From contig CAYGRO010000002.1 in assembly GCA_964352335.1 (NCBI GenBank), positions 77,138 to 141,137 on the forward strand: DNA of 64,000 bases. The letters are read 5' to 3'. Position 1 is the first letter of the stretch. Every line of letters starts with the position of its first letter. Made by a program: the position numbers and the translations under genes. The stretch comes from an uncultured Gammaproteobacteria bacterium (GTDB taxonomy: Bacteria; Patescibacteriota; Patescibacteriia; VMEV01; CAYQCH01). Positions 417 to 44,321 of the stretch are shown in pieces. The notes below the pieces were generated by a model. That model ran no database searches and was not told the origin of the DNA. It saw only the letters and a program-made list of their open reading frames with translations.

Positions 417-1577
417 TTATCTTTTTTGTAATCGATAAATAATATCTTCTTTATCATCGCTAATCAAAATTGATTCGTCTGATAAAACAAGAATTCCAGC
501 AGGTCTGCCAATAGAATTACCATCTTCTAAAAGGAAACCAGATAAAAGAGATTCACGAACCTGAAAATCGCTTTCAGAAGTTAAACGTATAACCTCATAC
601 CCCGATGGTTCTTTTCTATTCCATGAACCATGTAAAGCAATAATGGCGTCTCCCTCCAAAAAGTCAATCCCTAATGGTGCTTCATGGGCAATGAAATCAT
701 AAAAACTAGGTTCTGCAGATAAACACTCAGTTGATTGATTATATTCTGGGTCAATTATATTTTTCCCATAACAATAAGGAAAACCATAATCTTTTCCTTC
801 TTTGACAAGATTTAATTCATCTGGTGGCAAGTCATCTCCTAACCAATCTCTTCCCATTTCAGTAGCAAATAATTGTCCTTCATCATTCCAGTTAAAAAAC
901 ACAGCATTTCTCAAACCCGTTGCATAGGTCACAAGCTCTTGAGTAGAAAGTGTGTATCTAAGAATAGTTGTTCTTCGTTCATCATCTTCAATACAAATAT
1001 TACAGCTACTTCCAACGGAAATATATAATTCGTCCGTATCAGGAGCGAAAGCGATTGTTCTTGTCCAATGTCTCCCATCTGCAGGCAAATCTAAAATTGT
1101 CCGCGGATTAGTCGCCTTCTGATTTTTATAATCGTATTCAATTACTTGACCAGTTTCCGCAATATACAATTTTGCATCTTTAATAGCCAAACCATGAGGC
1201 CTATTCAAATTATCGACGAGCACTTCTTGTTCCCCTTTTTCATTCAAAAGTGAAACTCTTGATTGACTTGGCTCACTTACAAGTATGGCACCACTTTCAT
1301 CTTCTATCATGACACGAGGATTAATAATAGCGTCAGAATAAATAGATAACCGAAAGTCTGGATGAACAATAAAGGGCCCATTATCTACATCATTTTCATT
1401 ATCTTGGTTTTTCAGATTTTGTATAAATGTTGAAGTATCATTGCCAGAATCGCCTATTACAGGTTTCAGCGCATTCCAATAGGGTTTTAGATAAACCCCC
1501 GTAATAATAGCAATAATAGTAATAATAAGGGCTGTTCCCAACCAAATCGATTTATTTTTCAACATAATAGTAGACAT
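417..1577 (-). CDS. PQQ-dependent sugar dehydrogenase-like beta-propeller protein (soluble aldose/sorbosone dehydrogenase family), N-terminal membrane anchor
   Basis: 386 aa ORF with an N-terminal TM helix. Propeller-like repeats and motifs (NRPHGLA, GRHWTRTIAFAPD, LYISVGSSCN, EMGRDWLGDD) resemble the YliI/SGDH family. Confidence 0.55.
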   Translation of the reverse strand: MSTIMLKNKSIWLGTALIITIIAIITGVYLKPYWNALKPVIGDSGNDTSTFIQNLKNQDNENDVDNGPFIVHPDFRLSIYSDAIINPRVMIEDESGAILVSEPSQSRVSLLNEKGEQEVLVDNLNRPHGLAIKDAKLYIAETGQVIEYDYKNQKATNPRTILDLPADGRHWTRTIAFAPDTDELYISVGSSCNICIEDDERRTTILRYTLSTQELVTYATGLRNAVFFNWNDEGQLFATEMGRDWLGDDLPPDELNLVKEGKDYGFPYCYGKNIIDPEYNQSTECLSAEPSFYDFIAHEAPLGIDFLEGDAIIALHGSWNRKEPSGYEVIRLTSESDFQVRESLLSGFLLEDGNSIGRPAGILVLSDESILISDDKEDIIYRLQKR

Positions 1578-1606
1578 TTGACAATAAGATACTTCTATTG
1601 TACTAT
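1578..1606 (+). promoter_or_regulatory. sigma70-like promoter TTGACA-17-TACTAT
   Basis: TTGACA at 1578-1583, 17-nt spacer, TACTAT at 1601-1606. No ORF follows; the downstream region is GC-enriched and hairpin-rich. Confidence 0.45.
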
Positions 1607-1612
1607 AGATCA

Positions 1613-2085
1613 GTCATACAGAGATATCCACCGTAGGATGTCAATGTACCAACTATGAGGCTGGGTGCTCAGTAGTGGCTCGTAGTCGCTGCTGAGTATA
1701 TAACCCGTCCGAGTCTCGTCGATAATACGAGATACCTACGACGAAATCCTTTCGCGTTAACGGTATGAGTTGATCACTGCTCGATTCAACTCCTCGGACG
1801 GGTCACTACCAGTATCAAACATGGACTTTGTGTCGCTTCGGCTTCCGGAGGGCAAGACCACAGGCTTAAGCAAAAAGTCGCTCGCGTAAGTGAGGGACCA
1901 TGTTCGTAGAACAGCCAAACTCGGTCAAGTCGTCTAGTTCCGCAGTTGCGGCACAAGTCCCCCTTCTTTCCCCCGAGGGGTCATTCGGTAGCTCCCCCCT
2001 TGCTACTGGATGGCCCCTCTTCTTTTTTCAAAATCTTCAATATCACAAAAATCGCTGTCAGATATTTCTGACAGCGATTTTAAAA
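1613..2085 (+). ncRNA. Candidate structured ncRNA 1 (~470 nt), class unknown
   Basis: Bounded by the promoter at 1578-1606 and a strong intrinsic terminator (14-bp perfect stem 2048-2061/2067-2080 followed by TTTTAAAA). GC is enriched relative to flanking genes. Nested helices include 1704-1713 pairing 1793-1802, enclosing hairpins 1714-1732 and 1767-1792, and a UUCG-loop hairpin at 1835-1842. No credible ORF. Confidence 0.4.
2048..2085. terminator. Bidirectional intrinsic terminator
   Basis: Perfect inverted repeat aaatcgctgtcaga/tctgacagcgattt with a 4-nt loop. T-runs follow it on both strands. Confidence 0.6.
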
Positions 2086-2176
2086 CCACCTGATTATTTG
2101 TCAATAAAAATAGTGATAAATAGTGGTTAGATTTTTTGTCAAAAAAAGTTTTCAACATTTTACCCCAAATAACCTC

Positions 2177-2205
2177 TTGACCTAGCTCACTGCCACTGAT
2201 ATTAT
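2177..2205 (+). promoter_or_regulatory. sigma70-like promoter TTGACC-17-TATTAT
   Basis: TTGACC at 2177-2182, 17-nt spacer, TATTAT at 2200-2205. Confidence 0.4.
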
Positions 2206-2211
2206 TCATAG

Positions 2212-3125
2212 CACCAATACAGAGGACTTGTTCTCTGAAGCGGAAAAAATCCTCCCTTGAAATACAGGAAGGTATGTCAGAATCCTTGGTTACTAAGCTG
2301 AGCAATCAGTAAAAGTGAATAAGGAATACTGGGCATTTGCACTTCACCCGCAAGGTGAAATGATCGTTCAAACTCAAGTATGCTCGTTATGCGAGAGCAG
2401 AGGCAAGGCATTGCCTATTCCCTGCTCACGTAGTAGGGATATACTTGAACAAGAACATCAATTCAGTCTCATCGTCTTGGTTCACTCCTCGGCGCTAACA
2501 ACTGAAATACAAATGACTCACCAATTCAGGAAAACTTATTTCGCTCTCGTAGTGAAAATCGTGATCAAGCCTAAGATAAGCAAACTAACTCTTCTGAGCT
2601 AGCGAGCAAATCGATACCGCAAGACCACGAATAGACCAAAGGAACAAGCCAACACTTGCACCTAGATCTAAAAGTCATCTTTCTGAAATACTGATATGGA
2701 CTCGGAGCAGATCAACTTATACGCCCCTAAACAAGGCGGAGTGAACCGAATCACTAGTTGATCTAAGTAAGGCCTTAAAACCTGAATCATTGCTCCACTC
2801 GCGACCCCTTGCTGAATGAACAGCAATCTGGCAACAGAAAAAGGGAAACGAAAAAACGCGCATCCTGAAAACGTACGCATACGGATGTGAGAGCCGACTA
2901 TTCCAAGGAAGCTCAAGGTCCTCGACGACAAATCACCAGCAGATGGTAACATCGTCAAACGTAGAGACTCTGCAATGTGTGACTGCTAGCAGTCATCTCG
3001 ATTCAAACCGAGTACGAAGCTTTTCGGAGCTCTGTAACAAACGGTCAATACGAGGGCATCCATGAAGCCTGGCACGAGAAACGTTCTTCGGAACTAACTT
3101 GTGCCAGGCTTCTCCCATTTCAGAC
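2212..3125 (+). ncRNA. Candidate structured ncRNA 2 (~900 nt), class unknown (ORF-less group II intron-like or other large ncRNA not excluded)
   Basis: GC-enriched and ORF-free; only short overlapping ORFs on both strands. Many stable hairpins: a GCAA-type loop at 2343-2359; a 12-bp stem 3064-3075/3101-3112 enclosing a UUCG hairpin at 3083-3094; catcc/ggatg and ttgctg/cagcaa hairpins around 2800-2910. Promoter at 2177-2205. The terminal hairpin is followed by a T-rich tract. Confidence 0.35.
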
Positions 3126-3132
3126 CTGTTTT

Positions 3133-4614
3133 TCAAAAAATACTTAAATCCGTTAATAACTCTAAAGGTGCTTTATCATCCGTAAATAATTTCACAGAAG
3201 TATCTGTGATTTTTTTGATCGAAAAATAAGGTGGGAATGGCATTTCAGAATCTTCATAGATTTGATTAAGATCATCAAAATCAATTTCAGTATCGCTCGC
3301 AAAAATGAGTGAATTAGATCCTATTTCTGTATGTAATAAATACACATTTGCAAACACCTTATTGGTCGTTGCAATTAATCTCTCTGCTAATTCTGTTTCA
3401 TGTCCTAATGCGATATTGAATGCAAGTATCCCCTCTGGATTCAATCTTGATTGTGCTAATTGAAAAAACTCAATAGTTGCCATATGAAAAGGGATTTGAA
3501 ACTCATTGGCATATGCATCAACCAAAAGTAAATCATAGGTTGAATCTGTGCTTGCTAAAAATTGCCGTCCATCTGCAATAACCGGATTCACATTAAAAAG
3601 ATCTTCATCAAAATAGTTTTTCACTAAATCAAATACAGCTGGATCAATATCTACCCCATCTATTTCGCTTACAAATTGAGCAGCAGGTGTTTCTCTCCAT
3701 ATCCTAGGAATAGTCCCACCAGCAAAGCCTAGTACTGCAGTATTCAGGTTTTCACCACCATGAATAAATGGCAAAATAGCTAGCCAGTCCCAATACCTCC
3801 CCGTCCATGGAGTTCCTTTTTGATGCACAGACTGGACTCCTAAACCTTCATTAAAGATAATACTAAATTTTTCTTCATCCTCAATTAAACGAATTGTTTG
3901 ATACGGTGTCTCTTTTCCAAAAACAATCCCAGGCCCTTTCAATGGATTTGGTTTAAGTCCAAAACCAATAAGAATTAGTAGAAGAATAAGAATAACTTTT
4001 TTCCATCTATTAGATTTTTCTACAACTATTGAGAGCAACATCACAATAAGAGCAACAGAAATAAATGTAATATGAGTCCCAATAATAGGATAAAAAACAA
4101 TTGGCGTTAAAATAGAGCCAATAATACTACCAATAGTCGAAATTGCGAACACTTTCCCAGATATTGTTCCAGGATGATGCCCATCTCTGCCTAAGAGCTC
4201 GATGATAAGCGGACTAACAAAACCATAAAAGATACAAGCTGGCATTAAAACTATAAGCGATGCAGAAAATATCAGAAAAAAAGCTCCCCCAGATGGAATA
4301 TTCCCTCTATAGATTACAGGCAATATATTCCCTATAACATAAACAAAGTATGGGATGAGAAATGTACAAATCGATGCGAAAAAAAATGCATTCGAAAGCT
4401 CTTTTTTAATATCTTCTCTTTTTGAGATAGTCGCTCCAATAAAATACCCTATTGCCAATGCTGCTAAAGTAACACTAATGGCGCTTGTCCAAATAAAAAC
4501 TGAGGCGCCAAAAAACGGAGTCAGTAACCGTGCACCTGCTATTTCTACGATAAGAACACAAGCACCACTTATTCCAGCAATAAAGTAAAAGAATTTGAGC
4601 GAGTTATTTTTCAT
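3133..4614 (-). CDS. Fused polytopic membrane domain / spermidine synthase-like (polyamine aminopropyltransferase fold) protein
   Basis: 493 aa. The N-terminal ~200 aa contain multiple TM helices. The C-terminal part has the spermidine synthase-like signature (LLLVDAYANEFQIPFHMATIEFFQLAQSRLNPEGILAFN). Confidence 0.55.
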   Translation of the reverse strand: MKNNSLKFFYFIAGISGACVLIVEIAGARLLTPFFGASVFIWTSAISVTLAALAIGYFIGATISKREDIKKELSNAFFFASICTFLIPYFVYVIGNILPVIYRGNIPSGGAFFLIFSASLIVLMPACIFYGFVSPLIIELLGRDGHHPGTISGKVFAISTIGSIIGSILTPIVFYPIIGTHITFISVALIVMLLSIVVEKSNRWKKVILILLLILIGFGLKPNPLKGPGIVFGKETPYQTIRLIEDEEKFSIIFNEGLGVQSVHQKGTPWTGRYWDWLAILPFIHGGENLNTAVLGFAGGTIPRIWRETPAAQFVSEIDGVDIDPAVFDLVKNYFDEDLFNVNPVIADGRQFLASTDSTYDLLLVDAYANEFQIPFHMATIEFFQLAQSRLNPEGILAFNIALGHETELAERLIATTNKVFANVYLLHTEIGSNSLIFASDTEIDFDDLNQIYEDSEMPFPPYFSIKKITDTSVKLFTDDKAPLELLTDLSIF

Positions 4615-4653
4615 ATAATAAAAAAGCTAGTGCAGAATCACTAGCTTAATTTT

Positions 4654-4881
4654 TTATTTTGCTAATTCCTGTTTGATTAATTCTGTCAATTCTGCAATAT
4701 GCTCTTCTTTATCTGACACCATTTTTTTCCAAAATGATTCGCTTTCTACTGCTTGAGCGTCATTAATATAATGCTCTTTGATTTTCCATAAACTTTTATG
4801 TTCTTGAACGCATTGATTCATGAGATTATAAAGGTTATTGTCGTACATCATAAATATAGTTTGACGAATTAATAACCTCAT
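4654..4881 (-). CDS. Small hypothetical protein (75 aa)
   Basis: ORF only. A bidirectional hairpin terminator follows at ~4624-4652. Confidence 0.3.
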   Translation of the reverse strand: MRLLIRQTIFMMYDNNLYNLMNQCVQEHKSLWKIKEHYINDAQAVESESFWKKMVSDKEEHIAELTELIKQELAK

Positions 4882-5117
4882 TATAGCATAAAGCTAGCAA
4901 AACAGACTTCAAGAAAGGAAGTGAAGCTTGCTTATCAACCCATTCGATTATCATTTTAGTTTCGACCAAAAAAAAGGTCGTAAACATTTAACCAACAAAA
5001 TACGCGTCAGAGGCTATCCGCTTCGTGCACGTACCCGAGTGGACCAGTTCCAACGGTATATCACGGGCCATAAGCTCGGTCTCTGAGGAACCAAGAGACT
5101 TAGGAGGGAATCCGCCA

Positions 5118-5151
5118 TGTCGTTCACAAACGACATGGCGTTTTTCATTCA
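5118..5151 (+). terminator. Intrinsic terminator on plus strand (possible 3' end of a small RNA)
   Basis: Perfect 11-bp inverted repeat gccatgtcgtt/aacgacatggc followed by GTTTTTC. No plus-strand CDS lies upstream; the upstream ~130 nt are GC-rich. Confidence 0.4.
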
Positions 5152-5205
5152 CAAATGAAAGCAGAGTAGGTTCAGCGCTGGGCTTACTACTACTCTGCGG
5201 GCGAC

Positions 5206-6081
5206 TTACGCCAGAACGGACTTGTGCATCAAGCTGGTTTTCATTTGCTTGAGGATTTTGGCGAGGTTTTCGGCAGTGCCGATCTCCACCCTCTCCTTTG
5301 ACTTGACCGCCGAAAGATCAAGCATTCTGTCAGAAGCATTACCAGGAGCAACACCAATGACCATCTTTCCCGTCTGCTCGCGAATGGTTTTGAGGAAGGT
5401 CACATCGCTCTCTGAGTCACCGAAGACATAGGAGCGCCTCCAGTCAATGGAAGTACCTCGTGAGTCAGCCCACTTAGTGAGCCGACGAAAGGCCCACTCG
5501 GCTGCAAGGTGCTTGCCGTAGCCCTCAGGAGAGATATCAGCAAGATTGCCTTCTTCCCCATGACTCACTTGAACCCGATGGCCACGGTTGAAGGTCTCAA
5601 CCGCCTCGCGAACCCTCTGAGAGAATTCAGGTGCGGCCTTCCCTGAACTAATCCCTGGGTTGACCAGGATGATGTTCACAACCTGATTCCCGCTTTCGAA
5701 TAGCGTGAGATCGTAGCGGCGAAGATGCTGCAGCAATTGCAGGCGATCCACATTGCACCAGAACGAGTCGTGGTACTGTTTATGGACGGTATGGCTATAG
5801 GACTTGAGGTCCACACAGACCGCCCCGGACTCGGCAAAATGCCAATTCCACGCAGAGCGACCGAGGACCGTATGCGCGATGTCATGAACTCGCCCCGCGG
5901 GCTTATTCGTAACGATCACCACGACAAAGTTGTGCTTGTCGTGCAATTCATCGAGCATCAGCCCGATCTGGTTCATGGACGCACGGTCCAATACCCGAGG
6001 CTTTGGCCAAGGGATAGGCTCGATCAACGTGCGATCGAGATCCATGAAAATGACTTTAACTGGTTTCATTTCACTCTTCAC
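5206..6081 (-). CDS. HAD-superfamily hydrolase, subfamily IIB (Cof-like sugar-phosphate phosphatase)
   Basis: Motif I FMDLDRTL, motif IV GDSESD...GVAPGNASD. GC content is distinctly higher than in neighbouring genes; the opposite-strand shadow ORFs are typical of a GC-rich insert. Confidence 0.55.
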   Translation of the reverse strand: MKSEMKPVKVIFMDLDRTLIEPIPWPKPRVLDRASMNQIGLMLDELHDKHNFVVVIVTNKPAGRVHDIAHTVLGRSAWNWHFAESGAVCVDLKSYSHTVHKQYHDSFWCNVDRLQLLQHLRRYDLTLFESGNQVVNIILVNPGISSGKAAPEFSQRVREAVETFNRGHRVQVSHGEEGNLADISPEGYGKHLAAEWAFRRLTKWADSRGTSIDWRRSYVFGDSESDVTFLKTIREQTGKMVIGVAPGNASDRMLDLSAVKSKERVEIGTAENLAKILKQMKTSLMHKSVLA

Positions 6082-6170
6082 GACGATCCCCTCAGGATGT
6101 AGGTATTATAACCGGAAAGCACCGGTCATCATTTTTGACGAGAATCAAAATGATGACAAGTCCTTTATCG

Positions 6171-6995
6171 TTACCAATCCTTCAATGCTTTTTCATAATC
6201 TTCTGGAGAACCTATATCAAACCACTTCCCAGAAAAATGGTAACCATATAATTTTTTTTGTTCAATAAGCTTAGGTAAAATATCTATTTCAAAACTCTTA
6301 TCGTCTTTTCCTATATGAGATAATACTTGTGGATTTACCACAAAGAGTCCGCTATTAATCATATGTGAACTCATATCGGAATCTGTTTTTTCTTTTACTT
6401 GAACAACTTTATTTCCTTCCATTTTTATCATTCCCCAACTATCCGTATCTTGAACCGTTGTAACAGCCATTGTTACATGAGATGACTGTGACTGATGAAA
6501 ATCAATAAAATCAAGCCAATCAATATCAGCAAGGACATCTCCATAGATAAGCAAGAACGGATCATTATCTAACTTTTTTTGAGCAATCTTAATTGCTTGA
6601 GCAGTCCCTGTTTCTTGCGTATCAGAACAGTAATCAATATTGACACCATAATTTTGCCCATCACTAAAAACTTCTTCAACTTTATTCCCTAAATGACCGG
6701 TTACTAATACAATGTCTTTAAAACCAACTTTTGATAATGACTCAATGGTATGAGCCAATAAAGGTTTATCGTGAACAGGTAAAAGGGCTTTTGGTAATTC
6801 ATACGTAAGTGGTCGCAAACTCATCCCTTTACCAGCTACGAGTATCACTACTTTCGTTATACGTGAAACAATATGCTCACTTAAAATACTCTCGATTGCA
6901 TGTGATCGATTTCGAATCGTTTTTTTGTCAACGAGCTTATCAATTTTTTCTAAAATACTACCCGCTAAGGTAATGGTAATTCGTTCTTTTGGCAC
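6171..6995 (-). CDS. Ribbon-helix-helix (CopG-like) domain fused to sugar-phosphate nucleotidyltransferase
   Basis: The N-terminus (ITITLAGSILEKIDKLVDKKTIRNRSHAIESIL) matches the RHH pattern. The remainder (VVILVAGKGMSLRPLTYELPKALLPV ... GDVLADID ... WFDIGSPEDY) matches the NTP_transferase (G1P thymidylyl/guanylyltransferase-like) fold. Confidence 0.55.
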   Translation of the reverse strand: MPKERITITLAGSILEKIDKLVDKKTIRNRSHAIESILSEHIVSRITKVVILVAGKGMSLRPLTYELPKALLPVHDKPLLAHTIESLSKVGFKDIVLVTGHLGNKVEEVFSDGQNYGVNIDYCSDTQETGTAQAIKIAQKKLDNDPFLLIYGDVLADIDWLDFIDFHQSQSSHVTMAVTTVQDTDSWGMIKMEGNKVVQVKEKTDSDMSSHMINSGLFVVNPQVLSHIGKDDKSFEIDILPKLIEQKKLYGYHFSGKWFDIGSPEDYEKALKDW

Positions 6996-7073
6996 AATTC
7001 AACAGATGATTATTTACTCAAATGAGATTATCATACTCTTTCATACTTGTCATAATAGACTATCCACAGCCAC

Positions 7074-8024
7074 TTATTCAACAAGAGTTTCTGCTAAATA
7101 GACTCCATCACCACCCACAATAGGATTAGCTGTAGGCATGATTAAGACATAATCTTTCTCATAAACATGATTCTGACCATTTTCTATTGCAAGCACCTCC
7201 CCCTTAGGAAGCAACTGAAAAGAACTCCAATCTTGTGCCCAAGTAAAATCAGAAAATTTTGGTAATATATTCGCAATAACTTTATATTTTGACATTGTAA
7301 AATCTGTTGTATTTTTTTCAATATAGCCTTCAATTGAATTCATTGCAGCTAAAAACCTTATAGCTGTTTGCTCGGCGCAATACTTACTATTTTCATCAAA
7401 ATGAGAACCACATTCAACGCCAATAGACACTGTTTTTCCTTTTACTCTCCCGTGCGTATTAGAATACGTTGTCAACGTTGTCCCTGGTATAAATTCTAAT
7501 AAGTCATAAATATGTCGATAAAAAAATAATTTATCAGCAATCGCCATGTCCTCTTTTTCATATGAACTTAATAAGAATGGATCTGAAGGCTTACTTGTTG
7601 AGTGTAAATCTAAGGTTGCATCAAATTCAGGAATAATTGAGGCAATTTGCTTTGCTCTTTGGATTTCATAATAAGACTGATATTCAGGATTATTCAAGGA
7701 ATCCTCCTCATAAATTCGATTTAAATTGATATCTAAAAATCTAAATTCTGTATCAGCTACCTTTCTTTTGGAAATTGCTTCTCTATACCCTTGATAAGCT
7801 TTTATATTATGAACAATGAGAAAAATTTTCCCATGAATTTTTCGATTCAAAAGATCATGATCATCTATCAATTTGACTAGTGCATGAAAACCCGCGATTT
7901 CATTTCCATGAGTCACTCCAAAAATAGCCACTGAAGGACCTGGATTACCTTGATCAAGACAAAGAACACCTGGGATAGTTTTATAGGTTGATTCAAATAA
8001 GAGTTGTTCCGTTTTTGTATACAT
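7074..8024 (-). CDS. AstE/AspA-family zinc deacylase (succinylglutamate desuccinylase/aspartoacylase-like)
   Basis: Signature GVTHGNEIAG near the N-terminus; length 316 aa. Confidence 0.5.
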   Translation of the reverse strand: MYTKTEQLLFESTYKTIPGVLCLDQGNPGPSVAIFGVTHGNEIAGFHALVKLIDDHDLLNRKIHGKIFLIVHNIKAYQGYREAISKRKVADTEFRFLDINLNRIYEEDSLNNPEYQSYYEIQRAKQIASIIPEFDATLDLHSTSKPSDPFLLSSYEKEDMAIADKLFFYRHIYDLLEFIPGTTLTTYSNTHGRVKGKTVSIGVECGSHFDENSKYCAEQTAIRFLAAMNSIEGYIEKNTTDFTMSKYKVIANILPKFSDFTWAQDWSSFQLLPKGEVLAIENGQNHVYEKDYVLIMPTANPIVGGDGVYLAETLVE

Positions 8025-8073
8025 AAAATGTTGTCAGGGAGGGGTCAAAAGACCGCCTCCCCGATTACCACCG

Positions 8074-9399
8074 CTAGGCCTTGGTAGGCAATGCGATGCG
8101 CCCTCTATAGGCAGTGGGAACCACTCCCTTTTCACAGGACATTCGCTCCCACACGGATTGCATGAGAGCTTGGTATTGCTGAACCGTTGGCGCCACCAGT
8201 TGAAAGTGGCACTGCTTCGGAAGCAGGGTCGTCACGAGAGGAATGACACCGTAAGGAGCATCCCCTCTGTAGATGAGGTCACCCAGAACGTTGATAACGC
8301 GCTCAAATGAGTGTACCACATCGGTCGTCGGCTTAAAGATGTTCAGCCCAGTACAGACTTCAGCGCCGAAGATGTTCTCGATCTGAGTCTTCACATGGTA
8401 GGCGTACCAACCATTAGTCAACCGGATATTCGCCTCCGTGATATGGACACATCCATCCGGCAGAATGAGCATGTCAACAGAAAGGCAGCCTTGAACCCCC
8501 TTGAGCATCAGAAGGTCCCCCAACCGAAGCGCCTTATCCCGAATACACGAGAAGACCTTTTCAGTCATGCACGAGCCCTCAGTTGGCCTGCTAAAGACCA
8601 GGTTGCCATAGGAGAGCGGCTTGCCATCCGCACCAGACCTGACCAGAAGCTGGTCAGAAGCACCGAGGAAGTGAACGTGTTGTCCCTCGATTTTTAGAAG
8701 AGCACCTACGGCGACATGGTCACCGAAGAAAGGCTCGACGAGAAGAGAGTTCTTTTCTCCATTCAGCTCGAGCCAGATCTCCTCTAGCCCTTGCTTGGGG
8801 TGAATGCACTGGCCGTCTGACGAAGCCTCGCCATCGATTCGGACCATGCACTCTTCGTGATCTTGGAGGATCACTTCGGCCTGGGACGCGAGCTCCGTGA
8901 ACGATCTAACGATGCAGTGAGGAGTGAAAAGATCATACTCCCCAGCTTCCTTAGCAAGCGCACGTTGGGTGATCTTGGAACCCAGCCCCCAAAGTGAGGG
9001 ATGGTTACTGACCACGTATTGAGCCCAAAACTCATCTTCAGTTGTCAGGCCGAGAAGCTCCGAGAGCAGATGAGCGATGCGAATTTCCCCATCGTTCTTA
9101 CCCGCCTCGAAGAATTCGACCTTGTAGCCGCGCTTGATGTACTCAGCGATCCTTCTCAAGGTCTTTTGACCTGGTTCACTGATCAAGGATTCCACAGGAT
9201 GATCACCACCGACCACCCAAATGTCTGTAGCACCAAGGTTCACAGACTTGAGCCAAGCAACTTGTGCTGCTGAACCACATTCTCCAGTCGATGTGACGAG
9301 AATTCCCGGAACAGCAATTGCCCGAAAGCTCAAACCACGAACCTTGGTTGACTCCAACCCAAGCCAAGAGCTCAGATCTGCAATTGTAATAACTTTCAC
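8074..9399 (-). CDS. ATP-grasp family ligase (pre-ATP-grasp N-domain + ATP-grasp), substrate unknown
   Basis: 441 aa, GC-rich. Assigned on an ATP-grasp-like overall pattern; I did not identify a named motif. A hairpin terminator lies downstream at ~8040-8070. Confidence 0.4.
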   Translation of the reverse strand: MKVITIADLSSWLGLESTKVRGLSFRAIAVPGILVTSTGECGSAAQVAWLKSVNLGATDIWVVGGDHPVESLISEPGQKTLRRIAEYIKRGYKVEFFEAGKNDGEIRIAHLLSELLGLTTEDEFWAQYVVSNHPSLWGLGSKITQRALAKEAGEYDLFTPHCIVRSFTELASQAEVILQDHEECMVRIDGEASSDGQCIHPKQGLEEIWLELNGEKNSLLVEPFFGDHVAVGALLKIEGQHVHFLGASDQLLVRSGADGKPLSYGNLVFSRPTEGSCMTEKVFSCIRDKALRLGDLLMLKGVQGCLSVDMLILPDGCVHITEANIRLTNGWYAYHVKTQIENIFGAEVCTGLNIFKPTTDVVHSFERVINVLGDLIYRGDAPYGVIPLVTTLLPKQCHFQLVAPTVQQYQALMQSVWERMSCEKGVVPTAYRGRIALPTKA

Positions 9400-9439
9400 C
9401 GTTACCTCTTTGTTTGTTACTATTTGTTTTAACTGTCAC

Positions 9440-9478
9440 GAAGGACAAAAAAAACCCGCTTTTTTAAGCGGGCAAAAT
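9440..9478 (-). terminator. Intrinsic terminator (minus strand)
   Basis: cccgctt...aagcggg hairpin followed on the minus strand by a T8 run. Confidence 0.5.
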
Positions 9479-9686
9479 ATGTAGATGTTTATGGAATTTA
9501 CATACTTAGCCCGTTTGAAAAACAAGCAATAATAAGGAAAGACATACTAATATGTCGTTGTTCAATAGCAATAGTATTCAATTGTTGTCGTTGCTCCTTT
9601 TTCATAAAAATCAGTATAAATCAATCAATTATGTTTTGTCAAAAAAAATTAACAAAGAAAAAACACCTCAAATGAGATGCTTTTTC

Positions 9687-9701
9687 TGGTTCCCAGACAG
9701 G
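9687..9701 (-). repeat. Direct repeat of the tRNA-Gln 3' end (last 15 nt: T-stem 3' strand + acceptor + CCA)
   Basis: tggttcccagacagg is identical to 9832-9846. It is immediately followed by the palindrome cctgcctatcggcagg (9702-9717). Confidence 0.7.
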
Positions 9702-10182
9702 CCTGCCTATCGGCAGGTAAAGATTCGCCGTCACCACAAAAAGGGTTAGGATCGATGAGCTTCTCATCCCTTATCGACAGATCTATTTTTAGACAAAGTA
9801 AAACGCTCATCAGATTGATGAACGCTTTACTTGGTTCCCAGACAGGGATTCGAACCCCGATTCCATGGACCAAAACCATGTGTCCTACCTTTAGACGATC
9901 TGGGAATAGATAATCTTCTTTTTTTCTTCGCGTCCGATACCGGACTTTAAATATAGTTCACGAGCACGCGCTTCATCTACAGTAGCAAACTCTTCTGTAT
10001 GAACTAGTTTTAAAGGACGGCATCCTTTTGTTGACCTCACTTTGCCATATGTATGATTTTTAAATCGTTTTTCTATATCGGATGTGCTACCAACATATGA
10101 CCAATTAGCTCTATTTTGTGATACTAAATATAGATAAAAGCCATAACAATTGTTAATGGACCCCTGCCTGCCGGCAGGCAGG
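9702..10182 (-). mobile_element. Candidate inserted element interrupting a second tRNA-Gln copy; carries an intact tRNA-Gln and a GIY-YIG ORF
   Basis: Bounded by hairpin-forming imperfect inverted termini: CCTGCCTGCCGGCAGGCAGG (10163-10182) and CCTGCCTATCGGCAGG (9702-9717). Flanked by the 5' (10183-10237) and 3' (9687-9701) fragments of a tRNA-Gln. No integrase or transposase is seen. Confidence 0.3.
9832..9905 (-). tRNA. tRNA-Gln (anticodon UUG), CCA encoded
   Basis: Manual fold: acceptor TCCCAGA/TCTGGGA (U1-A72), D-arm GTCT-AAAGGTA-GGAC, anticodon arm CATGG-TTTTGGT-CCATG (anticodon TTG), variable loop GAAT, T-arm CGGGG-TTCGAAT-CCCTG, discriminator A, CCA. Confidence 0.85.
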
Positions 10183-10190
10183 AAAACCAT
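9891..10190 (-). CDS. Small GIY-YIG nuclease family protein (YhbQ/YazA/UPF0213-like, ~99 aa)
   Basis: Motifs GFYLYLV...WSYVGSTSDIEKRFKNH...KLVHTEEF...EARARELYLK match the GIY-YIG catalytic domain. The N-terminal 11 codons (start codon included) are encoded by the tRNA 5' fragment plus palindrome; the 3' end overlaps the intact tRNA-Gln by 15 nt. Confidence 0.55.
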   Translation of the reverse strand: MVFLPAGRQGSINNCYGFYLYLVSQNRANWSYVGSTSDIEKRFKNHTYGKVRSTKGCRPLKLVHTEEFATVDEARARELYLKSGIGREEKKKIIYSQIV

Positions 10191-10237
10191 GTGTCCTACC
10201 CTTAGGGCTCACCTTACTCTGGGGAGACGATCTGGGA
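10183..10237 (-). pseudogene. 5' fragment of a second tRNA-Gln copy (positions 1-35) with a 24-nt replacement in the D-loop
   Basis: TCCCAGATCGTCT[CCCCAGAGTAAGGTGAGCCCTAAG]GGTAGGACACATGGTTTT is identical to the intact gene except that the D-loop AAA is replaced. It breaks after anticodon-loop position 35 into a 20-nt perfect palindrome. Confidence 0.55.
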
Positions 10238-10385
10238 ATATCTTCAGTGTCTCAGTGATAGATTATTTCAGTGATACTGAAATAGTGTAGCATTGAATCA
10301 ATGAACCTGAGACTAAACAAAAGCTGGCAAAGAATGCCGAGCTTTTGTGTAGTAATACTAGCGTATTTTCAGGTTTTTCGTCAAG

Positions 10386-11267
10386 CTAGTTTCGTACTGG
10401 AATAACTGAATTATCCCCATCATTTAGAACGATTGTAGGAGTAATTCCTTTTTCTGTTAAGACGATTTTAGCATTTCTGCTTAAACTTTCTTGAGTTACT
10501 TCTAATGCTTTGAATTTTTGTGAATTAGCTTTAAATGTTTCTTCTACAGCTTTATTCACCTCACGTACAGCTTGCGCTTTGGCAATAGCTTCTAATCGAA
10601 TAGATTCTGCTCTACCAGTCGCTCGTTCAATTTGAGATGTTTTATCTGCTTCAGCTTCAATAATACGTGATTCAGAAATTTGTCTTACAGATTCTTTTTC
10701 AGCTTGTGCTGCTGTAATTTTTGCTTCCTTTTCACGCTCAGCAGTTACAACTTGATCCATAGCATGTTGCACAGATTGAGATGGGTGAACATCTTGTAAT
10801 TCAACACGTAAAATATCAATTCCCCATTCTTCTGTTTGTGAGTCTAATTCCGCTTCAATTCTTTGGTTAATTGTATGACGTTGAGCATTTACTTCAACGA
10901 ATTGTAATTCACCAATAATAGATCGAAGTGTTGTTTGTGCTAATGAAGGAATAGCTGAGAAAAAGCTATCAATATTATAAACAGCTTTCATTGCATCTTT
11001 AATTCTATAGTAAACAACGGCATCAATTTGCAAATTTAAGTTATCTTTTGTGATAACAGATTGTTTTGGTACATCTTGCCGAATTTCAGTCATTGGCACA
11101 CTTCGAGCCTTGTCGATAAATGGAATAATCCATTTTAAACCTTGGTCAATTGTTCGATGGTACTTCCCTAATCGTTCAACCAATCGAACTTCGATCGGAC
11201 GAACAACACGAAAACCGAGAACTGTAATAAAAAGAACCACGAGTAATAAGAAAACTAAACCACCCAT
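10386..11267 (-). CDS. SPFH/band-7 (stomatin/prohibitin-like) membrane protein
   Basis: N-terminal TM, SPFH-like core, C-terminal coiled-coil region rich in A/E/K. A terminator hairpin lies downstream at ~10318-10350. Confidence 0.65.
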   Translation of the reverse strand: MGGLVFLLLVVLFITVLGFRVVRPIEVRLVERLGKYHRTIDQGLKWIIPFIDKARSVPMTEIRQDVPKQSVITKDNLNLQIDAVVYYRIKDAMKAVYNIDSFFSAIPSLAQTTLRSIIGELQFVEVNAQRHTINQRIEAELDSQTEEWGIDILRVELQDVHPSQSVQHAMDQVVTAEREKEAKITAAQAEKESVRQISESRIIEAEADKTSQIERATGRAESIRLEAIAKAQAVREVNKAVEETFKANSQKFKALEVTQESLSRNAKIVLTEKGITPTIVLNDGDNSVIPVRN

Positions 11268-11333
11268 ATTGTTTTGGTAAACATTAAAGAAAGCTAAAAT
11301 TAGCAGAAAAAACTAGTTTTGTCAAGCAAAAGA

Positions 11334-12317
11334 TTATACCTTTGAATATTTACTTGTAGCCAAAATACTAGCAATACTTAAAAGTAAGACGAGACCAAGA
11401 AACTGTAAGCCAAAAAGGAATAAAAAGTTTACATTAAAGAATGTAATCAAATTTATCGCAGATCCATCAATAAATAATTCATTCACAAATGGCTGAACAA
11501 AGCTTAGTAAAGGATACCAGATCAAAAGAAAAATCATCATAGATAAAACGGCATACAGTATACTTTCCCAAATGTACGGCATTCGAATAAACCAATTAGT
11601 TGCTCCGACCAATCTCATTATGGCGATTTCTTCACGATGTGTATAAATGATAATCCGTAAAGTATTATAGACGACAATCAGCGCCATCAAACTAAACAGA
11701 ATACTTACGATCGACGCAATGCTTCTAATCCGTTTACTCACCCCAGAGACTCGCTCGATAATAAGCGTATGTTCATCAAAATTCTTATCGGCTATCACGG
11801 CATCATATCGTGGCTCATTTAGTAGGGCAACAATTGGTTGATAATCCTCAGTACTTTGTGCTTGGACAATCAATTGTGAACCAAGCGGGTTTCCACCGAG
11901 CTCTTGAAGTGAATCAATGATAGCTTGATCACCTTCATGTCGATTTAACATCGCAGATAATGCTTCATCTGCAGAAATATAAATAACTTCTTTTACTTGA
12001 TTAAGACCCAGTAAATGAGCTCGTAAATCTAATACAGTCGTTTCGTCGACTCCTGAATTGATAAAAACACTGACATCAATTTTCTTTTCAATCGTCTGAA
12101 GCGTATAGTCACTCACTGTTTTCACTAAAACAAGCGAATTGAAGCTGAATAATGCAAGTAAAATAACCGTAATGGTAATAAGTGACAACCAAATATTTCT
12201 CCAAAAATCTTTAATGGCGTATTTAGCTGTTCTAGATAAAAATGTAAACATAATTTTAGAGTGAATATTTACCACCTTCTTGATCACGAACAATTTGGCC
12301 ATTCTCCATAACAACAA
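11334..12317 (-). CDS. ftsX: Cell division ABC transporter permease FtsX
   Basis: N-terminal TM + periplasmic domain + C-terminal 3 TM (FtsX fold); immediately downstream of ftsE. Confidence 0.7.
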   Translation of the reverse strand: MLLWRMAKLFVIKKVVNIHSKIMFTFLSRTAKYAIKDFWRNIWLSLITITVILLALFSFNSLVLVKTVSDYTLQTIEKKIDVSVFINSGVDETTVLDLRAHLLGLNQVKEVIYISADEALSAMLNRHEGDQAIIDSLQELGGNPLGSQLIVQAQSTEDYQPIVALLNEPRYDAVIADKNFDEHTLIIERVSGVSKRIRSIASIVSILFSLMALIVVYNTLRIIIYTHREEIAIMRLVGATNWFIRMPYIWESILYAVLSMMIFLLIWYPLLSFVQPFVNELFIDGSAINLITFFNVNFLFLFGLQFLGLVLLLSIASILATSKYSKV

Positions 12318-14865: not shown

Positions 14866-16518
14866 CTAACTCAAAGCTAATTCATCATCAATAGTGATCT
14901 GAGTTGATTGAATATTAGATAAATCTACATTTGAAGCAAAATTAATCTTTGGGCCAAATGTATAATTAAACAATAATGATTCTTGTAAATCATGGATTTG
15001 TTTATTCCATGTTGAGCCAAATAAATCTTTGGCAACTTGTTCCGTACCAATATGTTTTAATATTTGCCCTCTATCTACAAAATACACTTCATTAATACTA
15101 GGAGCTGTTAGCATACTTCCGGGTCTAAACCCAACATTTTTCCCCAAAGGAATACTTGCAAGCTCTGCATCTGTAATTGTTTTAACGGTAGAAAAGTCTC
15201 CTTTGTACCAAGTATCATAGACAGCCTGAGTAACAAATACATGTCTTGTGCCAGCTGAACTATAGTAATAAACAGCATCTAAGCTTCCTTTAATTAAGTC
15301 TCCAGCTTTAAATGAAGTTGTTGGTGACACTGGTGTTGGGTTTGGATTAGGTACTGGTTGAGAAGATCCAATTTCAACGGAAAATGTTGAAAATACATCT
15401 CCATCATACATAATTTCTAAGGTATATTTTGTATTTGAGTTCAGTGTTGTGAGTAGGTCTAATTTACCAAAATCATCTGTAAGCCCAGAAAGTGTAGAAA
15501 CAATTTGCCCCCCAGTTTTGATTGTTACTAGTAATTCTCTTAATGGCAATAATTCTCCTTCTTCACTACGCAATGTAATAACAGCCATTAATTCATTTCC
15601 ATCAACAGAAGATTCAACGAATGATTTATCTAAAGATGGCTGACGCAAATCAACATAGACATCATAATTTGGGCTAATCCATGTATTATTATCTCCATCC
15701 ATTGTTGTTAAAAACAATTCTCCGTTAATGAACTTGACTTCTGGATCAATTGATGCAGACCAAGTAGAAAAATTTGTTCCTGTATTTGTTGCAATATACT
15801 GCTTGCCATTTAAATTAACGATGACATTTTTTGTAATACCAAGCCCTCTATCTCTTGCTTGCCCTGTAAGAATAATAGGCTGATCCGGATTAATGAGGGT
15901 ATTATTTTCTCCATAAACAAAACCGTTTACAAAAGCGAGTGGACCTTGCTGATCAATTTTACTTTCTTTGAAAAAGATCGTTGTAGAAGTTTCTAATGGA
16001 ACTGTGGTTGCAATTCCAGAAGAAAAAAAGACACCTTTGTCATTTGTTTGGAAAACACCATCATTACCAGCGTCTTGTGGCTGACTTAATGCAACTTGAA
16101 AAATTTTATCACTAATAAAGGCATTTGATTCTAAACTGACAAAAAATCTTTGTGTAGAAGCCGTAAATATATGACTAATATTTTTAAATTCCCATACATT
16201 TGTAAATTGTCCTTCTGCTAATAGTTTATCATACCCCCACCCTTGAAAACCAGCATCACCAGTATCTAACCATAAGCGCATTTTGGCTACTTCAATACCA
16301 TTTCTTGCAGTTCCAGAAGATGTCAAAGTAAGCGTATTTAAGACTTCTCCTATATTTGTTGATATATCAAAATCAAGAGCCAAAACATTAAAATCACCAC
16401 CATAAACTCGTGGTTCAGTTATATGACGAATAGTAAAAGTTGCATCAGAAGCAGCCTGTGCAGGAAGAACCGGTAATAATGATAGTAATAACGCACCAAG
16501 TAAAAATAGATATCTCAT
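14866..16518 (-). CDS. Secreted protein with the C-terminal ~120-aa shared domain described in findings
   Basis: Signal peptide (LLSLLPVLPAQAAS). The C-terminal segment GDLIKGSLDAVYYYSSAGTRHVF...YKGDFSTVKTITDAELASIPLGKNVGFRPGS...VYFVD is homologous to the N-terminal domains of the 17419-21021 and 38121-39299 proteins. Confidence 0.5.
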   Translation of the reverse strand: MRYLFLLGALLLSLLPVLPAQAASDATFTIRHITEPRVYGGDFNVLALDFDISTNIGEVLNTLTLTSSGTARNGIEVAKMRLWLDTGDAGFQGWGYDKLLAEGQFTNVWEFKNISHIFTASTQRFFVSLESNAFISDKIFQVALSQPQDAGNDGVFQTNDKGVFFSSGIATTVPLETSTTIFFKESKIDQQGPLAFVNGFVYGENNTLINPDQPIILTGQARDRGLGITKNVIVNLNGKQYIATNTGTNFSTWSASIDPEVKFINGELFLTTMDGDNNTWISPNYDVYVDLRQPSLDKSFVESSVDGNELMAVITLRSEEGELLPLRELLVTIKTGGQIVSTLSGLTDDFGKLDLLTTLNSNTKYTLEIMYDGDVFSTFSVEIGSSQPVPNPNPTPVSPTTSFKAGDLIKGSLDAVYYYSSAGTRHVFVTQAVYDTWYKGDFSTVKTITDAELASIPLGKNVGFRPGSMLTAPSINEVYFVDRGQILKHIGTEQVAKDLFGSTWNKQIHDLQESLLFNYTFGPKINFASNVDLSNIQSTQITIDDELALS

Positions 16519-42559: not shown

Positions 42560-44001
42560 ACTGTTTTCTTCCGGAAAGTTTTAAATAACGCTTGTATCTC
42601 AGAAAAAGTAATAACACGCAATACAATGATGAAAAAGGTAAAGACAATAGCTCCAACAAGAGTAATTAAAGTGAAGTGCAGGTATGGGAGTAATACCCAA
42701 ACAATTAGCCCCATAAGGGAAGCAGAAAGAGCCGTTTTCATAAATGAAACAAATAAATGACCCCATCCAATTTCCTCATAACGTGACACCCAATAAATCC
42801 CCATACAAGTAAGCAAAGCATAGCTAATGACCGCTGCTATCGCAGCTCCTACAAATGAATAGAGCGGAATTAAGATAATATTTAAGATAATATTCAATGT
42901 CATAACTATTCCGCGAGTAATCATATTTTTTCTCTGTTGCCCAATCGCTGACAAAAGAGAACCTAATGGAAATTCTACAAAACCAAATACGACACCCCAA
43001 ACTAATATATACATAGCAGGAATAGAAGCAGCAAAATCAGCAGTATAAAGCTCTGTAATAATCACGGGGGTTAATACAAAAATCCCTACGGCAATTGGCA
43101 ATGAAAGAATAAAAAGAAAGAGTATCGATTGCTCAAAAACTTCAACCATCTTTTTTCTATCAGTTTTATATAAACTACTCATTGCTGGATAAATAGAAGC
43201 AGCAAAAGCAGCTGGAATAAACTGTAATGCAAAAACAATTTTATTGGGCACTGCATAATACCCCACAGCTCCCTGACCAATAAATTGTTTTAGTAATACC
43301 GTATCAATCGCAGAAAAGACCCTTGTAAATGCTCCAGAAAAACCAAACGGAATCGATTCTTTTAAAAATGTTTTATCAAAGGTTAAAGCATAATTTGGCT
43401 TTGGCCAAAAGTTTAATTTTATTTTTAATAAGATCGAAGCAAAAATACTTGTAAATAAGCTTCCTAATAAGAGCGCGATAATCAAAATTTCTAATGGAGC
43501 TCCCATTACTAAACCTGTTAAGCCGATTGCCAAAGTTATTCCTTGACTAAGGATAACGGCAAATGCTTCATACTGTAATTTATGATGCCCCCTAAAAACA
43601 CTCCAGATAGATAAATTTAAAGAATCAAATAGCATTAATGCTAACGCTATCCATATCATATTTTGAATAGAACCCGTAAGCCCCATTGCATAACTAACAA
43701 GAGTGGCCAATGCAATAGTACCTATTGCATAATAAGACTTGATCGCCAAAGTTTTACCTAGAATTTTTTCTGCCCATTTAGGTTTTCTTGCAATTTCTCT
43801 TTGAATTAACGGAGCTAAACCAAAGTCAACAAAAACCGAAAAGATTGTTGTAAACGACAATGCAAAAACATAGGCGCCAGTATCTACCACCCCAACCAAA
43901 CGAGCAATCATTGTAAAATAAATAAACGACAAAATTTTCTGCCCAATAAAAGCAGAACTAAGGTATGCAGTATTTTTTACAATATTTTTAGATCCACTCA
44001 T
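42556..44001 (-). CDS. Polysaccharide biosynthesis flippase (Wzx/MOP superfamily)
   Basis: 481 aa with ~12-14 TM helices; position at the head of the GT cluster. Confidence 0.6.
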   Translation of the reverse strand: MSGSKNIVKNTAYLSSAFIGQKILSFIYFTMIARLVGVVDTGAYVFALSFTTIFSVFVDFGLAPLIQREIARKPKWAEKILGKTLAIKSYYAIGTIALATLVSYAMGLTGSIQNMIWIALALMLFDSLNLSIWSVFRGHHKLQYEAFAVILSQGITLAIGLTGLVMGAPLEILIIALLLGSLFTSIFASILLKIKLNFWPKPNYALTFDKTFLKESIPFGFSGAFTRVFSAIDTVLLKQFIGQGAVGYYAVPNKIVFALQFIPAAFAASIYPAMSSLYKTDRKKMVEVFEQSILFLFILSLPIAVGIFVLTPVIITELYTADFAASIPAMYILVWGVVFGFVEFPLGSLLSAIGQQRKNMITRGIVMTLNIILNIILIPLYSFVGAAIAAVISYALLTCMGIYWVSRYEEIGWGHLFVSFMKTALSASLMGLIVWVLLPYLHFTLITLVGAIVFTFFIIVLRVITFSEIQALFKTFRKKTV

Positions 44002-44223: not shown

Positions 44224-44321
44224 AAATTACCTGAATTATAGCATGCGCCAAAAGAGCACACCTATTGACAAATGAACAATAATATGATATAGTTGAAAAA
44301 GCTAAAAAAGGGGCAAAACAG

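Follow-up and report, generated by a model that had tools for sequence, protein, structure and literature searches.

Two GC-rich genes of an AT-rich operon region are as old as their neighbors and show excess predicted mRNA folding

Locus and base composition

The locus described here lies in a 64-kb stretch of contig CAYGRO010000002.1 (positions 77,138 to 141,137), which was analyzed as a whole and is called the window, or W; related loci and lineages carry L numbers, and protein records carry P numbers. On the minus strand of the window stand four genes, two of them AT-rich like their surroundings and two, for a ligase and a phosphatase, conspicuously rich in GC. The origin and persistence of that composition are our subject. 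The four genes are as follows.

5206-6081, minus strand: HAD-superfamily phosphatase, GC-rich, with an insert (about residues 59 to 189) between motifs II and III
6171-6995, minus strand: sugar-1-phosphate nucleotidylyltransferase (NTase; PF00483) with an N-terminal RHH-like segment, AT-rich
7074-8024, minus strand: AstE/AspA-family zinc amidohydrolase (PF24827), AT-rich, the conserved partner of the ligase
8074-9399, minus strand: ATP-grasp amide/peptide ligase of 441 amino acids (aa), with a PGM1/BesA/L-amino-acid-ligase-like fold, a GTG start, and an AGAGG Shine-Dalgarno sequence

The composition survey covered the 64 kb of the window, whose mean GC is about 36%. In 400-nt windows, GC reaches 0.50 to 0.56 at about 4990 to 6100 and about 8000 to 9400, compared with 0.30 to 0.37 in the flanks, and the 1-kb bins 5001-6000 (0.539) and 8001-9000 (0.537) are the sole ones above 0.43. 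At the level of genes, GC content and GC content at third codon positions (GC3) are 0.532 and 0.634 for the HAD-like gene and 0.528 and 0.584 for the open reading frame (ORF) of the ligase. The intervening NTase and AstE/AspA genes have GC3 values of 0.229 and 0.215, and all 45 other window ORFs of at least 150 aa fall between 0.17 and 0.32. Atypical composition and codon usage are thus a property of just two of the four cluster genes (GC3, 0.58 to 0.63 versus 0.17 to 0.32). The spacer at 4990-5205 is likewise GC-rich (0.42 to 0.52). The change in composition is abrupt, with one step within the 49 nt that separate the ATP-grasp stop codon from the AstE gene and another at the ATP-grasp start codon.

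An earlier sequence-only reading of this DNA had described such a mosaic, with the HAD gene, the ATP-grasp gene, and the 4990-5200 spacer set against AT-rich NTase and deacylase genes, and had proposed a comparison of GC and codon usage; the 400-nt windows, 1-kb bins, and per-gene GC3 all bear the mosaic out, and composition is not uniform. It had also remarked on opposite-strand shadow ORFs within the GC-rich genes. These are seen in the ORF listing, and we take them to be probable side effects of GC-rich codon usage; for the GC-rich ORF of L006, automated annotation settled on the antisense frame, in which GC at first codon positions is 0.80. The junctions between GC-rich and AT-rich DNA recur in Logan assemblies made separately from two further sequencing runs (L002 and L003) and in other lineages, and the mosaic is therefore not an assembly artifact or chimera.

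Conservation and age in related lineages

The ATP-grasp and AstE genes lie in the same chromosomal context in six lineages (W, L004, L021, L024, L025, and L026) and also on the P0008 contig, with FtsX/Band7 or BipA upstream and, downstream, a gene for a membrane protein with a spermidine-synthase-like domain (SpmSyn-like), GSDH, MurJ, and RluA. The NTase and HAD genes are common to three lineages (W, L004, and L006), in which they are syntenic, and are absent from L021, L024, and L025. The sequence-only reading had taken the cluster for a horizontally acquired islet, an idea against which synteny in relatives would speak; such synteny is largely what its proposed gene-neighborhood comparison brought out, in six lineages for one pair of genes and in three for the other. 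Nor are the genes without obvious pathway partners, as had been supposed: the SpmSyn-like membrane protein, a 54-aa protein, GSDH, and MurJ are conserved neighbors.

The slots themselves are not always filled alike. In L006, a GC-rich (0.60) ORF of 445 aa at 371-1708 on the plus strand occupies the ligase slot and is followed by an AT-rich Asp/Glu racemase gene in the AstE slot; the 445-aa protein gave no match in Pfam or among PDB sequences and might be glutathionylspermidine-synthase-like.

ATP-grasp and AstE agree in the order in which their pairwise identities place the lineages, and the closest pairs are the same in both matrices: W and L004 (47% for ATP-grasp and 78% for AstE) and L024 and L025 (45% and 69%). 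As a measure of age, we used identity above chance at 4-fold degenerate sites within shared codon families, with the following results.

W and L004: AT-rich neighbors, 14%; GC-rich genes, 9%
L024 and L025: AT-rich neighbors, 16%; GC-rich genes, 13%
W and L006: AT-rich neighbors, 3.6%; GC-rich, about 6% (HAD only, 68 sites)

Identity at these sites is similar in the GC-rich genes and in their neighbors, and the GC-rich genes are therefore as old as the genes that flank them. Their proteins evolve faster; nonsynonymous divergence (dN) is 0.35 to 0.52, compared with 0.14 to 0.19 in the neighbors, about 2- to 3.5-fold.

Persistence of the GC offset

The GC3 values of ligase and phosphatase genes and of their local backgrounds are listed below.

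ATP-grasp, W: gene 0.58, background 0.22
ATP-grasp, L004: gene 0.48, background 0.23
ATP-grasp, L025: gene 0.54, background 0.25
ATP-grasp, L026: gene 0.64, background 0.39
ATP-grasp, L021: gene 0.78, background 0.53
ATP-grasp, L024: gene 0.33, background 0.31
ATP-grasp, L027 (25% identical, different context): gene 0.70, background about 0.39
ATP-grasp, L030 (distant): gene 0.53, background about 0.51
HAD, W: gene 0.63, background 0.22
HAD, L004: gene 0.53, background 0.23
HAD, L006: gene 0.70, background 0.28

ATP-grasp is clearly GC elevated in five of the six close lineages, and HAD is elevated in all three of its carriers. On a logit scale, the offset is 1.0 to 1.8 units in the nine elevated cases and about 0.1 in L024 and L030. 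A roughly constant logit shift is what is expected from a constant selection or conversion coefficient favoring G or C.

Lawrence and Ochman are said to have modeled transferred genes as losing their foreign composition, and approaching that of the host, at the synonymous substitution rate. We used the same expectation. In a two-state approximation, the excess identity of two lineages falls with the square of the decay that a compositional excess undergoes in each of them, and neutral decay would leave at most about 37% of an ancestral GC excess for the W/L004 split and about 19% for the W/L006 split. The excesses observed, 0.25 to 0.42, would then require a donor GC3 above 1, and neutral amelioration of an ancestral import is therefore rejected. 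Decay is absent here despite 86 to 96% turnover of 4-fold sites, and the neutral assumption of the model thus fails for these genes. Our search of the literature for genes that stay GC-rich in AT-rich genomes or in those of Patescibacteria found nothing directly relevant.

Predicted mRNA structure and codon pattern

The mean folding energy of 150-nt segments was compared with that of synonymous shuffles keeping the protein, the codon usage, and the dinucleotides. For the ten GC-elevated genes, z ranged from -1.3 to -5.2 with a mean of -2.95 (ATP-grasp, -3.6 to -4.4; HAD, -2.7 to -3.7), versus a mean of -0.39 for 24 nonelevated genes, comprising operon neighbors, other window genes, and two nonelevated family members (Mann-Whitney p = 2.8e-5). 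Local GC heterogeneity and dinucleotide bias were considered as sources of this excess and set aside, as the signal persists under dinucleotide-preserving shuffling and also when shuffling is kept within blocks of 40 codons. In eight of eight genes, the sense strand exceeds the antisense strand in predicted structure (p = 0.004), and RNA rather than DNA is therefore the indicated target.

Reportedly, Katz and Burge (2003) applied a dicodon-shuffle test to bacterial coding regions and detected selection for local secondary structure in mRNA, an effect both weak and genome-wide. Ours is the same type of test, with native mRNAs again more stable than synonymous, dinucleotide-preserving shuffles; unlike in that work, the signal in W is concentrated in two genes with GC3 up by 0.25 to 0.4, and the operon neighbors show none.

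The codon pattern is also uneven. Third-position A drops from 0.36 to 0.11 to 0.14, whereas T drops only from 0.42 to 0.26 to 0.28, and G- and C-ending codons both rise. The first 12 codons are lower in GC3 than the genes as a whole (0.33 versus 0.58 for ATP-grasp and 0.42 versus 0.63 for HAD). Conserved GC-rich hairpins follow both genes (at 8031-8073 and 5030-5205). The GC-rich genes hold no long repeats, only short hairpins.

Proposed maintenance of composition and its alternatives

We favor, with moderate confidence, the explanation that these are vertically inherited genes whose GC content and mRNA structure are actively maintained. The locus would be a clade-specific, vertically inherited operon region of an AT-rich, small-genome bacterium, probably one of the candidate phyla radiation, built of two modules: the ATP-grasp amide ligase with the AstE/AspA amidohydrolase, and the RHH-like sugar-1-phosphate nucleotidylyltransferase with the HAD phosphatase. 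The GC of the ligase and phosphatase genes would be no remnant of recent import; it would be held against the AT-biased mutation of the genome by a push toward G or C at synonymous sites of about 1.0 to 1.8 logit units. The folding comparisons suggest that selection on mRNA structure or stability may be the cause. Its likely target would be the transcript, which is A-poor and is predicted to be more stable than synonymous shuffles mainly on the sense strand; the first codons stay AT-rich, and conserved GC-rich hairpins lie 3′ of both genes. Such a pattern fits selection favoring an mRNA that is compact, resists nucleases, or is translated slowly.

Several observations weigh against this explanation. 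Two family members, L024 and L030, have no offset, and the size of the offset correlates weakly with z across eight family members (Spearman rho = -0.54, p = 0.17). The folding excess is moderate and comes from prediction alone, and low z values were also obtained for one AT-rich control, the L006 racemase gene (-3.4), and for rpoA (-2.7). Selection on structure leaves the faster protein evolution of the GC-rich genes unexplained. The congruence of the trees rests on five taxa, and the estimated divergences approach saturation. Within the 64 kb to which the survey was limited, there is a third GC-rich patch, at 44301-44800. To our knowledge, there is no precedent for selection on mRNA structure raising the GC3 of a whole gene by 0.25 to 0.4.

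The strongest competitor, which we nonetheless consider unlikely, is repeated horizontal replacement, in which alleles from an unsampled GC-rich source (another lineage, a plasmid, or a phage) would enter the ligase and phosphatase slots time after time, each copy being fairly young and unameliorated. Import is classically recognized by an atypical composition that changes sharply at its edges, and the slots are plastic, as seen in the 445-aa ORF and racemase gene of L006 and in the lack of NTase and HAD in L021, L024, and L025. The GC-rich proteins are also far more divergent than their neighbors (47% versus 78% identity; dN, 2- to 3.5-fold), and GC of the genes (0.48 to 0.62) is more constant than that of the genomes (0.35 to 0.50). 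Yet young, independent imports should not share their closest pairs with AstE and their synonymous divergence with the neighbors, as these genes do. For single genes to be swapped precisely between AT-rich neighbors in five or more lineages, a GC-rich donor would have to share homology with the flanks, and no donor-like sequences came from the exhaustive ATP-grasp search or the word-index HAD search described below. Excess folding of the sense strand relative to synonymous shuffles is not predicted by replacement.

Less probable again is GC-biased gene conversion at a recombination hot spot, for instance one under diversifying selection, where biased repair would raise both GC and protein change. 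It could account for the rise of GC at all three codon positions and in the noncoding DNA alongside, for a dN 2- to 3.5-fold that of the neighbors, and for a nearly constant logit offset across backgrounds, which fits a constant conversion bias. However, the effect is far above the few GC3 points usually credited to this process in bacteria, the boundaries fall at gene ends with no gradual fading, and cytosolic enzymes are unlikely hot spots. Neither strand-specific excess RNA folding nor a stronger depletion of A than of T is predicted by it.

A single ancient import from a GC-rich donor, still ameliorating, amounts to the islet of the sequence-only reading moved back in time, and we regard it as improbable. 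The composition is atypical, the nearest structural relatives of the ligase are Streptomyces enzymes, and L024 shows that amelioration can complete; against this, 86 to 96% of synonymous sites have turned over since the lineages split and offsets of 0.25 to 0.42 persist, the offset is found also in a 25%-identical homolog in a different context, and identity to the Streptomyces enzymes is only 15 to 18%. Least credible of all is an assembly or binning chimera joining GC-rich foreign fragments to an AT-rich contig, which the metagenomic source and the abrupt change might suggest, given that the same junctions occur in the L002 and L003 assemblies and, in different samples, in five or more further lineages and that reading frames and operon spacing are intact.

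Atypical GC or codon usage is routinely taken as a sign of horizontal transfer, also by island-finding programs. This locus is a counterexample. The anomaly is as old as its flanks, recurs in a 25%-identical homolog, and comes with excess predicted mRNA folding. If selection on the transcript is indeed the cause of the maintained composition, strong gene-specific constraint on synonymous sites is possible even in tiny AT-rich genomes, and composition-based transfer calls in such genomes need a divergence check. More tentatively still, one can envision a heritable, gene-specific "GC set-point" in a few genes of AT-rich reduced genomes, long preserved through selection that acts on the physical state of the transcript. 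Were that so, atypical GC would mark a mode of posttranscriptional control rather than foreign origin, with the ATP-grasp/amidohydrolase family as the first example.

The ATP-grasp ligase and its amidohydrolase partner

The 441-aa protein matches no Pfam or NCBIfam family at E values up to 0.01 to 0.1 and no PDB sequence below an E value of 0.25. Its assignment as an ATP-grasp enzyme, already proposed by the sequence-only reading, is upheld by predicted fold alone. An alignment-based AlphaFold (AF2) model has a predicted local distance difference score (pLDDT) of 91.8 and a predicted template-modeling score of 0.90, and a Foldseek search of the PDB with this model gave 587 matches at E values of 1e-3 or less, the top ones all ATP-grasp enzymes. 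These are 8ynd, PGM1 (3wvq/3wvr), and BesA (8yi6), aligned over nearly the full length with E values of 1e-21 to 1e-18 and template-modeling (TM) scores of 0.70 to 0.75; next comes 7r8q, the staphylococcal L-amino-acid ligase SAOUHSC_02373 (PMC9486568).

With PGM1 (the pheganomycin peptide ligase), the Streptomyces ligase 8ynd, BesA, and SAOUHSC_02373, the W ligase shares the three-domain ATP-grasp fold and the conserved nucleotide- and Mg-binding signature K141, R145, E321-x-N323-x-R325, and ATP-dependent carboxylate-amine ligation is therefore implied. These five residues are invariant in 18 homologs and correspond to the ATP/Mg2+ ligands, K...R where the central domain begins and the E-x-N motif of the C-domain; the position of the presumed central β-strand lysine is arginine ("RVDGEAS") in the close clade. 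The W enzyme differs from those ligases in that identity is only 15 to 18%, its family is very small, and the family is in every case paired with an amidohydrolase gene rather than with natural-product genes. An exhaustive HMMER search of 1.84 billion representative proteins yielded only 22 relatives, six of them full length at 34 to 48% identity, and no candidate donor lineage was among the 22. A first metagenome scan with the close ATP-grasp alignment returned no loci; a second returned one partial locus, L029, with little GC offset.

The AstE/AspA label given by the sequence-only reading also stands. PF24827 (AstE_AspA_cat) scores 54 bits against a cutoff of 25, aspartoacylase chains of the PDB match at an E value of 4e-4, and the HGNE and LDLHS zinc-site motifs are intact in the translation. 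All NCBIfam equivalog models score far below their cutoffs, so the subfamily search that had been proposed for both proteins placed AstE/AspA in a family and not in an equivalog subfamily, and placed the ATP-grasp protein in no sequence family. AstE follows the ligase in L004, L021, L024, L025, and L026. Throughout the family, the ligase gene has an amidohydrolase gene as its neighbor, of four different folds in all: AstE/AspA (close clade), Peptidase M20 (L027), FGase (P0019 contig), and Peptidase_C26 (L030). The L027 ligase/M20 pair lies beside a Mur ligase, Ddl, and a class-IV (D-amino-acid) aminotransferase, and MurJ is nearby in all of the close lineages.

This defines a very rare ATP-grasp ligase family, coupled in every case to an amidohydrolase of one of four folds, and the coupling points to an uncharacterized make-and-break amide metabolite or cell wall modification in candidate-phyla-radiation-like bacteria. 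Pairs of enzymes that add and remove amino acids, or supply them, are familiar: the D-aspartate ligase Aslfm and its racemase act in Enterococcus faecium peptidoglycan, and tubulin glutamylases are opposed by M14 carboxypeptidases. W similarly couples an ATP-grasp ligase to a zinc amidohydrolase (AstE/AspA); as with Aslfm, L006 has an Asp/Glu racemase in the neighboring slot, and distant homologs lie near a Mur ligase, Ddl, and a D-amino-acid aminotransferase. The likeness is one of arrangement. An amide-linked or cell wall-related product, close to what the sequence-only reading suggested, is plausible. With low confidence, we propose a make-and-break amide-linked metabolite or a modification of the peptidoglycan peptide, for which the NTase/HAD module would, with equally low confidence, supply or recycle an activated sugar. 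As a guess, the product could be a γ-glutamyl or D-amino-acid-containing small molecule or cell wall peptide that is cleaved by the partner hydrolase. Literature searches for ATP-grasp enzymes with succinylglutamate desuccinylase and RimK found no linking papers, and those for the ATP-grasp/AstE pairing found nothing directly relevant. PADLOC reported no defense system for the four cluster proteins; its one match was of a generic methyltransferase fold, for the SpmSyn-like protein.

The nucleotidyltransferase/phosphatase pair

The "RHH-nucleotidyltransferase" of the sequence-only reading is secure in its second half, with PF00483 (NTP_transferase) at an E value of 5e-43 and 147.8 bits, and borderline in its first, with RHH_1 at 20.4 bits against a cutoff of 20.5. 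The best NCBIfam models for the NTase are Arch_glmU, ManC-like, and MurU, all below their cutoffs. Its orthologs in L004 and L006 are 70 to 73% identical, and a scan of genome contigs gave nothing closer than 42% identity.

The phosphatase had been labeled HAD-IIB. Membership in the superfamily is supported by the motifs DxDxT (FMDLDRT), VTNK, K190, and GDSESD in W and by the key residues T58, K190, D222, and D226, invariant in three orthologs; PF12710 scores 26.9 bits against a cutoff of 27. Assignment to subclass IIB finds no support in the IIB model TIGR01484, which gives 14.2 bits against 41.8. An insert of about 130 aa sits at the C2 cap position, and the AF2 model is poor (pLDDT of 48 overall and 23 to 41 in the insert). 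The gene starts with GTG at 6081 or with ATG 12 nt downstream (residue 5); a public record of the protein, P0003 (279 aa), begins at a Met inside the VIFMDLD motif and loses the first β-strand, and the orthologs favor the longer ORF. A word-index search of 5.8 billion sequences, profile query included, found only three HAD proteins of this kind and no donor.

Noncoding elements and neighboring genes

Other features close to the four genes are listed below.

3133-4614, minus strand: SpmSyn-like membrane protein with a spermidine-synthase-like domain (PF01564, E value of 5e-9), a conserved downstream neighbor
4654-4821, minus strand: small protein of about 54 aa (MNQCVQEHKSLW...), preceding the SpmSyn-like gene in W, L004, and L006
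5030-5205, minus strand: GC-rich conserved noncoding element directly 3′ of the HAD stop codon
8031-8073, minus strand: GC-rich stem-loop GGGGAGG...CCTCCC in the spacer from the ATP-grasp stop codon to the AstE start codon, read from the sequence
9454-9473, minus strand: hairpin resembling an intrinsic terminator, with a T-run, 55 nt ahead of the ATP-grasp gene, with the same layout in L004 and L001
9832-9905, minus strand: tRNA-Gln(UUG), a neighbor conserved in relatives

The element at 5030-5205 (about 175 nt) is 72% identical to L004 over 162 nt and 78% identical to L006 over 45 nt. It has three predicted hairpins, including a perfect 12-bp stem at 5113-5140, and RNAalifold, with only three sequences, predicted 35 pairs, seven of them changed on both sides; it has no Rfam match at an E value of 1 or less. 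The stem-loop at 8031-8073 has an equivalent in L001 at the same position (GGGAGG...CCTCCC) and no clear T-run after it. Such a stem-loop may be a 3′ stabilizer or a processing site.

Upstream of the ligase gene, the terminator-like hairpin is preceded by a promoter-like TTGACA-18-TATACT at 9642-9613 on the minus strand and by a 35-codon ORF, read in that order; L004 has the same promoter/terminator layout with an unrelated 35-codon ORF. A weak, subthreshold Trp_leader match (E value of 0.012) covers the 9400-9650 region. This region may be a small gene, a small RNA, or a leader controlling readthrough into the ligase gene.

The SpmSyn-like gene is present in L004, L006, and L021 and directly abuts AstE in L021. 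The protein of about 54 aa is 61 to 72% identical between lineages and belongs to no Pfam family.

The tRNA-Gln gene

tRNA-linked genomic islands typically have an integrase, an attachment-site repeat derived from the tRNA 3′ end, atypical GC, and a patchy distribution. Like them, the W locus combines atypical GC with a tRNA gene, duplicated at its 3′ end, at a distance within 300 to 430 bp. The sequence-only reading had noted this duplication, and it is real: the 15-mer TGGTTCCCAGACAGG occurs at exactly two sites, 9832-9846 in the tRNA gene and 9687-9701, with 0.04 matches expected by chance. The copies are 145 bp apart and both lie on the same, upstream side of the cluster. A further copy that might delimit an island, which the sequence-only reading had proposed to look for, was absent from the window with up to two mismatches allowed, leaving the two known copies, and no integrase or recombinase was found among the ORFs of 3000-12000.

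Unlike a tRNA-linked island, the W locus thus has no integrase, has both repeats on one side, and has no distal repeat in the window; moreover, its GC-rich DNA consists of two single genes split by native AT-rich genes, syntenic and codiverging in relatives. The combination expected of an island, patchy presence with a phylogeny or age discordant with the flanks, was not found. In L021, tRNA-Gln is also upstream of the cluster, with BipA in between; tRNA-Gln is a conserved neighbor and not an island attachment or integration site. The proposal of a horizontally acquired islet at the tRNA gene gives way before this synteny, the equal synonymous divergence, and the lack of an integrase, a delimiting repeat, or a donor in our searches.

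The tRNA-Gln gene shares 15 nt with the 3′ end of an upstream GIY-YIG endonuclease ORF (9891-10190, minus strand). The 5′ half of the tRNA, as far as the anticodon loop, is present once more at about 10176-10240, upstream of that ORF; this copy carries a D-arm insertion. CCTGCC...GGCAGG hairpins adjoin both tRNA fragments, the 5′-half copy and the 3′-end copy at 9687-9701. The 9687-10240 segment has the look of a homing-endonuclease element by which the tRNA gene was split and then regenerated. A GIY-YIG gene is also upstream of the ligase gene in L004 and L001.

Further GC-rich stretches

Known RNAs were considered as the basis of the GC-rich DNA and rejected. An Rfam scan of the whole window at gathering thresholds found RNase P and tRNA only, and a scan of 1400-10300 and 43900-46000 at E values of 1 or less gave only weak, implausible matches.

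The third GC-rich patch (44301-44800, GC up to 0.58) lies downstream of rpsI. Its sole sizeable ORF (44322-44603) encodes 93 aa, is membrane-like, has a GC3 of 0.63, and is read from the plus strand, contrary to almost every other gene; neither ORF nor patch has a Pfam or Rfam assignment.

Between the SpmSyn-like gene and GSDH, 1580-3130 is a stretch of about 1.5 kb with no ORF above 100 aa, a GC of 0.44 to 0.57, and no Rfam match at an E value of 1 or less. In 200-nt windows, predicted folding of the plus strand at 1500-2200 is far stronger than that of dinucleotide shuffles (z of -3.1 to -7.2), and the minus strand of 2500-2800 has a z of about -3.5. GC-rich uncalled stretches are found at the same relative position in L006 (6600-8100) and L025 (4050-4650), with sequence matches of just 26 to 28 nt. 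We regard 1580-3130 as a candidate for one or more uncharacterized structured RNAs. The logic of a GC set-point may extend to this patch and to that at 44301-44800. One more such stretch, GC elevated and without a called gene, lies between MurJ and the RluA-like gene, a position that in W falls beyond the left end of the window; it is seen in L025 at 7450-8100 and in L021 at 15000-15600.

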